DNA from: Promethearchaeota archaeon
GTDB taxonomy: Archaea; Asgardarchaeota; Lokiarchaeia; Sigyniarchaeales; SOKP01
DNA length: 64,000 nucleotides
Direction of reading: 5' to 3'
Assembly (NCBI GenBank): GCA_016839585.1
Contig: JAEOTZ010000023.1
Location: 1 to 64,000 of the forward strand
In this document: one piece after another, positions 12,091-14,162 of the stretch
Numbering within the stretch: position 1 is the stretch's first letter
Layout of the letters: each line of letters opens with the position of its first letter
Translations under genes and position numbers: made by a program
The notes under the pieces: model-generated
Told to the model about the DNA's origin: nothing
Database searches by the model: none
Seen by the model: only the letters and a program-made list of their open reading frames with translations

Positions 12091-12309
12091 ATGGCAAAAA
12101 AGAAACATTCCTTTGCATGGAGCCCAATTCGTCGACTGATGAAACAACAAGGTGCAACAATCGTAGCTCGAAACGCAGTTGATCTATTAATTGATCATTT
12201 AGAAAAAACAGCCTCGAAATTAACTGAACAGGCAAGATCATTCACAACTCATGCAAATCGAAAGAAGATAACAAAGAACGACCTTCTTCTTTCAATAAAA
12301 TATAAATAA
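12091..12309 (+). CDS. Archaeal histone (HMf-like fold)
   Basis: SPIRRLMKQQGA..V, HANRKKITKND; GGAGG SD. Confidence 0.93.
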   Translation: MAKKKHSFAWSPIRRLMKQQGATIVARNAVDLLIDHLEKTASKLTEQARSFTTHANRKKITKNDLLLSIKYK

Positions 12310-12520: not shown

Positions 12521-13186
12521 GTGATAAAATGGATGCAAATGGCTGAAAATTCGGAAGAAAATAATCATATGCAAGTAAATGGAAAAGCAAAAGAAATATT
12601 ATTTCAATCTATGGAATTGATAATGAAGAATCTTCAGGAAAATATGGAGCATCTTAATAAACCTAGACATTTTAAACATACCCAAAAATTTATTGAAATG
12701 GTTCATGATGGTTTAGTGAATAAGAGAAGATTTTTCTTATTAGCGTCGGGGAGAAGTGCTTTTATATTACAATGTTTTGCTACGAGATTAGTCCATCTTG
12801 GAGCAGAGATATATGTGGTTACTAATTTAGCAAGTATGCCTGCTCTTACAAGCAATGATATTCTAATTGTTCTTTCGGGATCAGGAACTACGGATATTGT
12901 TGTGTCGCTTCTAAAAAATTTTGTAAATACTGTTAAACCTTTTGGAATAGTCGCAATTACCTCTCATCCCGAAACCATTATCGGGAGGGCAGGAGATGTT
13001 ACAATTAAGCTTAAAGGTAGAACTAAAAAAGATAAAGTGACAGGAGATACTGCTGTTTTAACACCGGAAGGTACCATGTTTGAGGCTGCCGCGTTCAGCT
13101 ATTTGGATGCAATTATAGCTGAATTAGCCATTAAGCTTGGTAAAACTGATGAGGACATGCTCAAGAAGCATTCCCAGACTACATAA
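12521..13186 (+). CDS. SIS-domain sugar-phosphate isomerase (6-phospho-3-hexuloisomerase-like)
   Basis: SGRS, RLVHLG, SGSGTT, PEGTMFE, LKKH. Confidence 0.85.
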   Translation: MIKWMQMAENSEENNHMQVNGKAKEILFQSMELIMKNLQENMEHLNKPRHFKHTQKFIEMVHDGLVNKRRFFLLASGRSAFILQCFATRLVHLGAEIYVVTNLASMPALTSNDILIVLSGSGTTDIVVSLLKNFVNTVKPFGIVAITSHPETIIGRAGDVTIKLKGRTKKDKVTGDTAVLTPEGTMFEAAAFSYLDAIIAELAIKLGKTDEDMLKKHSQTT

Positions 13187-13223
13187 CTTTACTTTTTAAT
13201 GACTAATTTGAATAATTATTATA

Positions 13224-13293
13224 TGCGCCGATTTATAGTGTTTTTATGAGAAATTAGTTTGATGAATAAAAATCTCCAAATCGGCGCACACTT
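13224..13293 (+). ncRNA. Box H/ACA pseudouridylation guide RNA (single hairpin with K-loop); predicted target 23S rRNA helix 69 U1911
   Basis: Stem GCGCCGATTT/AAATCGGCGC, pocket ATAGT/CTCC, upper stem GTTTTTAT/ATAAAAAT, TGA...TGATGA K-loop, ACA at 13288-13290 lying 14 nt from the pocket top. Confidence 0.85.
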
Positions 13294-14162
13294 TACATGA
13301 GTAAGGCGCCAATTGCAGCACAAAATTCTGAATTCTTTAAGAATATTGCTTTTTTTTTGCTTACCTTACAAATTAGTGATAAAATTTTCTTTGCTAGCCT
13401 ATTTTCTTTTAAAAATCCACCACAAAAAACAATACTTAAAATATCATTATTGTCAGCTATTAAGTTTGCAATTGAGCCTATATTTTCCCCAATCATGCAT
13501 ATTATTGAATTAATAAAATCCTCCTTTAACAAATTATTAATGTCAAAATTTAAATCAATCTTTCCTAAGGATGCCGCTGTAAACTCCCTAAATAGTAAAT
13601 CAACTCTGTCATCTTCAGGAGCATAAATATCAGAAACCTTTAAATCAACATTATATCTAGTTCCTTGTTTAGCTAGGTTTAAAGCCTCTTGGAAATCATC
13701 TAAGTTGTACAAAATTTTAATCAATCCCATTAAAAAGCCTCCTCCCAAAGCAGAACCACCTAAGTGCTCAACAGAATCTTTTTTTGAAACCATCGAGGTT
13801 CCTGTTCCAATAGTCACAATTAACGAAGAAGATATCTCTTTCTTTTTTTCTAATAAATGAAGGATTTCAATTCCTTTAACATTAGCTTTAAATTCATTTA
13901 TTAATTTTGTTTCAACTATTTTTGAATAGTATTGATATAAATTGAAGCTTTTTCCACCTGTAAAATTAATTTTTTTAATTTGCTTTATATTCGACTCTAA
14001 AGCTATTTTGAGTGGACTTAAATCAGATTGAGTTAGATAGTAATATAATTGTAATTTATCACCATTTAAATATGCAATCTTTGAAAGAGTTTGTCCCATA
14101 TCGACTCCAATTGTATCTGTTGGTATTTTAACATATAGCTTATCTACATTTATATTGAACAT
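13293..14162 (-). CDS. Type II pantothenate kinase (Fumble/CoaW-like)
   Basis: GVDMGQTLSK, FTGGK, INEF, IGTGTS, GGSALGGG, DLKVSDIY, AASLGK. Confidence 0.88.
   Translation of the reverse strand: MFNINVDKLYVKIPTDTIGVDMGQTLSKIAYLNGDKLQLYYYLTQSDLSPLKIALESNIKQIKKINFTGGKSFNLYQYYSKIVETKLINEFKANVKGIEILHLLEKKKEISSSLIVTIGTGTSMVSKKDSVEHLGGSALGGGFLMGLIKILYNLDDFQEALNLAKQGTRYNVDLKVSDIYAPEDDRVDLLFREFTAASLGKIDLNFDINNLLKEDFINSIICMIGENIGSIANLIADNNDILSIVFCGGFLKENRLAKKILSLICKVSKKKAIFLKNSEFCAAIGALLM

Follow-up and report, generated by a model that had tools for sequence, protein, structure and literature searches.

An intergenic gap of 106 nt in a Promethearchaeota archaeon (assembly GCA_016839585.1, contig JAEOTZ010000023.1) houses a hairpin between an isomerase-like and a kinase-like gene, and this raises the question of whether the hairpin is an RNA in its own right and, if so, on what target it acts. 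An initial annotation of the 64,000-nt stretch of DNA analysed here (hereafter the window) had read it as a box H/ACA guide RNA for helix 69 of the 23S rRNA. Based on the hairpin, its homologues and their candidate targets, we conclude that it is almost certainly an H/ACA-type RNA and that it is highly likely to guide Cbf5 to U1911 of helix 69 for conversion to pseudouridine.

The hairpin covers 66 bases (window 13225-13290, + strand), and every part that the annotation had named was found in place on that strand. A lower stem of 10 bp, including 6 G-C pairs, is formed by 13225-13234 and 13278-13287, and the ACA box (13288-13290) lies exactly 14 nt past the pocket-closing pair, both as claimed. 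Above the lower stem, the 5' strand AUAGU (13235-13239) and the 3' strand CUCC (13274-13277) make up the putative guide pocket, which is topped by an 8-bp upper stem (13240-13247 with 13266-13273) whose pocket-closing pair is a conserved G·U. This stem is capped by a K-loop (13248-13265), the predicted L7Ae site, with GA at 13248-13249, a 14-nt variable loop and AUGA at 13262-13265. The first GA stands opposite the GA at 13264-13265 as a tandem G·A, bringing the GA stem to 10 bp (8 bp plus two G·A). The K-loop had been described as UGA/UGAUGA; the loop itself is present, but its 5' GA pairs with the second UGA, and the first is not conserved. Likewise, the description of a GC-rich hairpin fits the basal stem, whereas the hairpin as a whole has only about 35% G+C compared to 29% for the genome. 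The neighbouring genes, given as context only, encode a 6-phospho-3-hexuloisomerase-like protein upstream (12521-13186, +), flipped or absent in some relatives, and a type II pantothenate kinase-like protein (panK) downstream (13293-14162, -), with its stop codon 2 nt past the ACA. Further upstream of the isomerase gene, an archaeal histone-like gene is located at 12091-12309 (+).

The predicted folding energy is -21.4 kcal/mol (z-score -4.3), and none of 200 shuffled sequences was equally stable. When the whole 3.45-Mb genome was searched with an H/ACA structural descriptor, 4 matches were obtained, versus 1-2 in locally shuffled genomes, and among the 4 only the hairpin of the window combines 8/8 upper pairs with a 10-bp lower stem. 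The three weaker matches, at about the chance rate, are located in the same genome at G000 C15:493-569 (-), C25:2151-2220 (+) and C33:17375-17454 (-). The hairpin itself is present in one copy, which rules out a repeat or mobile element, and it matches no curated Rfam family at gathering score.

Conservation in relatives had been set beforehand as a test of the annotation. In all 30 same-genus loci fetched via the kinase gene, the hairpin lies beside that gene, and a covariance model (R1) matches in 114 of 135 family genomes (35 of the 36 high-quality ones), nearly always once per genome. The hairpin also persists beside unrelated genes and in genera that yielded no panK match. An alignment of 38 sequences shows complete (100%) pairing of the lower stem, with 3 compensatory pairs; the pocket strands, the closing G·U, the 3' AUGA and the ACA are invariant or nearly so, CUCC and the A of the 5' GA are invariant, and variation is unrestricted in the apical loop and flanks. 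The closing G·U, found in 38/38 of these sequences, is retained in 75/84 of a wider set of homologues. Thus the pocket and the 3' half of the K-loop are kept, and the ACA is mostly kept. Compensatory changes affect 6/18 pairs in the unfitted 38-sequence alignment and 15/18 in the wider one (8/10 in the lower stem, 7/8 in the upper stem), the latter alignment being fitted to the model and its related sequences not independent; 0/500 shuffles reach that value and slid controls collapse. In divergent members, the entire lower stem has been replaced with pairing preserved. The search for covariation among Asgard genomes, which the annotation had proposed as a check, returned both covariance model matches and compensatory pair changes.

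The homologues also indicate how the RNA is encoded. G·U pairs outnumber A·C pairs by 99 to 10 in the upper stem, which fixes + as the strand from which the RNA would be read. TATA-like motifs upstream of 61 homologues peak between -29 and -26, with 34 in these four positions versus 0-4 per position from -59 to -30, which suggests that the guide RNA probably has its own promoter. In the window, the corresponding box (13193-13200, +) is weak, consisting of a T-run plus AAT about 30 nt upstream of the hairpin. These observations bear on a simpler reading, in which the hairpin is a terminator or an mRNA 3'-end structure common to both convergent genes, as its position between two stop codons and the short U run on its 3' side would allow. 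Among 63 loci, however, the flanking genes converge at 46 and run in the same direction at 16, which weakens the terminator reading and also makes the convergent arrangement, correctly noted for the window, incidental. Together with the persistence of the hairpin where panK was not found or where unrelated genes adjoin, the upstream TATA peak, and the finding that conservation is highest in the unpaired pocket bases, this leaves termination as the main role very improbable, although the hairpin may have a side role in ending the mRNAs of its neighbours.

Two other RNA structures carry AUGA/GA kink motifs, namely the SECIS element of the type known from Lokiarchaeia, with an eukaryote-like AUGA-GA core (PMC4989117), and the box C/D RNA, whose box C resembles UGAUGA. 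In lokiSECIS, however, the AUGA precedes a stem with an A-rich loop, whereas in the present hairpin the stem ends in the G·A pairs, with a loop of unconstrained length beyond them; moreover, no in-frame UGA occurs in the upstream gene, whose orientation is often reversed. For a box C/D RNA, a downstream CUGA box D is missing, and the unconserved first UGA also speaks against it. Neither the features of lokiarchaeal SECIS elements nor the terminal boxes and 10-12 nt guides of box C/D sRNAs were found, and an origin in either class is barely credible. What was found is the set of features of an archaeal box H/ACA RNA: a covarying stem-internal loop-stem, the ACA spacing, the K-loop, bipartite pairing and the protein genes. 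In all likelihood, the hairpin is a genuine guide RNA that has escaped cataloguing and is retained in several Asgard groups.

For the target, we relied on the 23S genes of relatives, because in the host assembly the 23S gene covers only the 5' 1,320 model positions and ends short of helix 69 (16S is likewise absent). The annotation had predicted a eukaryote-like GGAG stem, and this is present in 23S genes of the same genus, which read GGAG-U-A-ACUAUAA, and of the same family, where helix 69 reads GGGAG-U-A-ACUAUAAC in 27/28 matches. Comparison with E. coli rrlH confirmed that the target U corresponds to E. coli U1911. The 23S fragment of the host shares 90.7% identity with that of a genus mate carrying the predicted helix 69 sequence. 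The exception among the family matches, a 23S gene with a different loop (G028:C18, L016), was considered as a counter-example and rejected as a bin contaminant, being only 68% identical to its genus mate. In five family genomes (G061:C87:37483, G062:C20:17532, G086:C1:205325, G093:C48:91265 and G146:C218:1433), the 23S match ends at the same point just past helix 69, and this shared break point may be an rRNA intron insertion site.

Against the 23S of genus mates, CUCC pairs with 1907-1910 (GGAG) and AUAGU with 1913-1917, the latter reaching 7 bp on opening of two basal U-A pairs, so that the site is bound by 4+5 to 4+7 bp, all Watson-Crick. The duplex energies, given for each side of the pocket as stacking sums rather than RNAsnoop values, are -7.8 kcal/mol for the 4 bp and up to -7.9 kcal/mol for the 5-7 bp. 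A scan of every U in genus-mate 16S and 23S (about 310 per 16S and 660-770 per 23S) found the target U to be the only one with at least 3 bp on each side and 8 in total. When guides from three other genomes were paired with their own rRNA, the U1911 site again ranked first. In Baldrarchaeum, the guide CAUAGU faces the target ACUAUG, a G at 1918 being matched by a guide C, and in relatives of Harpocratesius and Promethearchaeum the 3' guide is down to 3 bp while the 5' guide reaches at least 8 pairs. As far as can be read from these sequences, the guide pockets change in step with the target across divergent lineages. A main target elsewhere, such as 1915/1917, a tRNA or several sites, has precedents in Sulfolobus sR435, which guides 8 sites despite imperfect pairing, and in Haloferax sR-h45, where one pocket modifies two adjacent helix-69 uridines. 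No other 16S or 23S site comes close, however, and in several lineages the pocket has changed in register with 1911, so we regard this option as distinctly improbable.

According to published rules (PMC4652768), the GA stem of a productive guide spans 10 bp and the ANA box follows at a distance of 14-15 nt; the 5' duplex should be more stable than -6 kcal/mol, the spacer should measure 2 nt, and no wobble pair should adjoin the target. The RNA of the window has the 10-bp GA stem, 14 nt to the ANA, the 2-nt spacer and no adjacent wobble, and the stacking sum of its 5' duplex (up to -7.9 kcal/mol) also lies below -6 kcal/mol. The host genome encodes Cbf5 and Nop10 above cut-off, L7Ae with 131 bits (cut-off 134.6) and a weak, partial Gar1 with 26.8 (cut-off 29.3); the RluD family (Pfam) was not found in five Asgard genomes. 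We propose that a + strand transcript of about 66-70 nt, probably made from its own promoter, acts as a single-hairpin archaeal box H/ACA guide RNA. L7Ae would bind the K-loop and Cbf5 the lower stem and ACA, with Nop10 and Gar1 completing the particle. During large-subunit assembly, the pocket would bind helix 69 at its open 5' arm and loop, with CUCC pairing with G1907-G1910 and (UU)AUAGU with A1913-A1919. This would leave U1911 and A1912 unpaired beneath the upper stem, where Cbf5 could turn U1911 into pseudouridine. As background to such predictions, a large share of the predicted P. abyssi targets was unconfirmed on testing (PMC11077068, PMC2377435).

Pairing with helix 69 could also serve a different end, the hairpin being a real H/ACA-type RNA that acts mainly as a folding chaperone or spacer for helix 69 in 50S assembly and directs pseudouridylation hardly or not at all, at least where the boxes are degenerate. 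Such a role would suit the Promethearchaeum/Harpocratesius family, in which the 3' guide is reduced to 3 bp, the 5' guide extends over 8-13 nt and the ACA has moved or disappeared, as well as one clade that is 1-2 nt short of the usual spacing. We nevertheless consider it improbable, as the copy of the window and most homologues retain the exact catalytic geometry. In 84 unique homologues, an ANA is found exactly 14 nt from the pocket top in 65, and the 5' dinucleotide of the K-loop is GA in 59, AA in 13 and UA in 12; 13 lack an ANA at 13-16 nt, and 25 have A or U replacing the 5' G of the tandem G·A. Even these variants may still work, because typical single-hairpin guides in Haloferax can do without the ACA (PMC7075261) and ACA-less guides are functional in Sulfolobus (PMC11077068).

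The pocket and K-loop layout recurs outside the family of the window's genome, also in other orders of Lokiarchaeia: copies occur in a second family of the order (Zod_Metabat.1055 plus two further genomes), in a Helarchaeota bin and in Baldrarchaeum yapensis, with another copy in Harpocratesius repetitus and a degenerate but syntenic one in the cultured Promethearchaeum syntrophicum (G050:C1:3781511-3781596, -). A clean 10/5/9 version with a terminal ACA is present in five genomes of one family, to which a 4.9-Mb Heimdallarchaeota bin belongs; this family is probably part of Hodarchaeales. R1 missed every copy outside the family of the window's genome and R2 missed those of Heimdallarchaeota, so that absences are to be read as "not found" only, and the common descent of the Heimdallarchaeota copies, which R2 does not score, rests on the shared motif layout and target. 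A loose pattern run over 400 genomes gave mostly noise, yet yielded the Baldrarchaeum copy. No convincing copy was seen in the other Asgard families searched, and a candidate without K-turn in G205 was discarded, being inside a protein gene and not conserved. In the genomes G161, G182, G219, G227 and G259 (family f10), the helix 69 stem is rearranged with a C before the target U, and no guide of the helix-69 hairpin family was found in them. The hairpins of the Harpocratesius/Promethearchaeum family (L206, L207, L208, L210 and L223), whose 3' guide has 3 bp and whose 5' guide can match as many as 13 nt of helix 69, lack the ACA or carry it out of place, and are flanked by a nuclease-like gene and a Rab-family GTPase gene.

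The closest class for comparison is that of the single-motif H/ACA sRNAs of Thermococcales, Pab91, Pab160/Pf9, Pab21 and Pab19 (PMC2377435, PMC4652768), which likewise have one hairpin, a K-loop, a 10-bp GA stem, 14 nt to the ACA, a bipartite pocket and one rRNA target. The fold in the window is 10/4/10, or 10/5/9 with the last basal pair open, and that of relatives with CUCCC is 10/5/9. The Asgard hairpin differs in its lack of an Rfam match, its target, its AU-rich upper stem and the variable 5' G of the tandem G·A. Archaeal guides for helix 69 are Haloferax sR-h45 (1915, 1917), Sulfolobus islandicus sR148 (1917, 1923) and the guide for Psi2016 of P. abyssi, a loop site conserved in yeast. 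With these, the Asgard hairpin would share Cbf5-dependent pseudouridylation of helix 69, but they act on other uridines; furthermore, sR-h45 has two hairpins, and sR148 is without lower stem and ACA. The known archaeal helix-69 marks are 1915, 1917 and 1923, and 1911 is absent from the sites listed for Pyrococcus abyssi, Haloarcula/Haloferax and Sulfolobus islandicus. In our literature search, the coverage of which was incomplete, no paper was found on Asgard H/ACA RNAs or Asgard rRNA pseudouridine maps.

Outside archaea, modification of the same position is known from bacteria and humans. In E. coli, bacterial RluD makes pseudouridine 1911 together with 1915 and 1917 (PMC2794176), the site being that predicted for the Asgard guide but the enzyme a stand-alone protein. 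Human helix 69 is pseudouridylated at the 1911 equivalent (PMC2875026), whereas budding yeast has no mark there (PMC2794176). Human SNORA23 (ACA23) is the listed guide for 28S U3737 (PMC3511933), which equals E. coli 1911 where 3741 equals 1915 (PMC2794176). SNORA23 and the Asgard hairpin thus have the same predicted site and mechanism, but the former has two hairpins and no K-turn, as is general for eukaryotic H/ACA RNAs (PMC7991803). As a guide target, 1911 is apparently new for archaea, judging from the species compared, and shared with humans; the guide mechanism itself is textbook. A conserved Asgard guide would imply that RNA-guided marking of this subunit-bridge position is older than eukaryotes. 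More tentatively, one old Asgard family, reaching Heimdallarchaeia near eukaryotes, could make pseudouridine 1911 and be the ancestor of SNORA23, a proposal with a modest chance of being right; if true, a single snoRNA lineage would be traceable through eukaryogenesis.

The natural variants of the guide family, with shifted pairing, lost ACA or altered K-loop, can further be used to probe the rules of guide design. The 3' guide is lengthened to CUCCC in 11/84 homologues, reaching G1906, and the apical loop varies from 9 to 25 nt among the 84. In one clade (L121, L123-L125, L130, L134, L142, L143 and L147), the lower stem has lost 1-2 nt, which places the ACA only 11-12 nt below the pocket top and provides a natural test of the ACA spacing rule. 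In genus g21 (L129, L135-L139), AAA frequently replaces the box or the box is missing, and another hairpin, small, conserved and GC-rich, follows directly. At L150 (G026:C152:8-80, -), about 1 kb from the main copy, lies another, diverged one whose 5' guide is altered; it is a paralogue or a decaying duplicate. Finally, L039 and L043 carry, between the intact guide and the panK stop, a remnant similar to the 3' terminus of the other guide variant, which may point to duplication and replacement at this locus.
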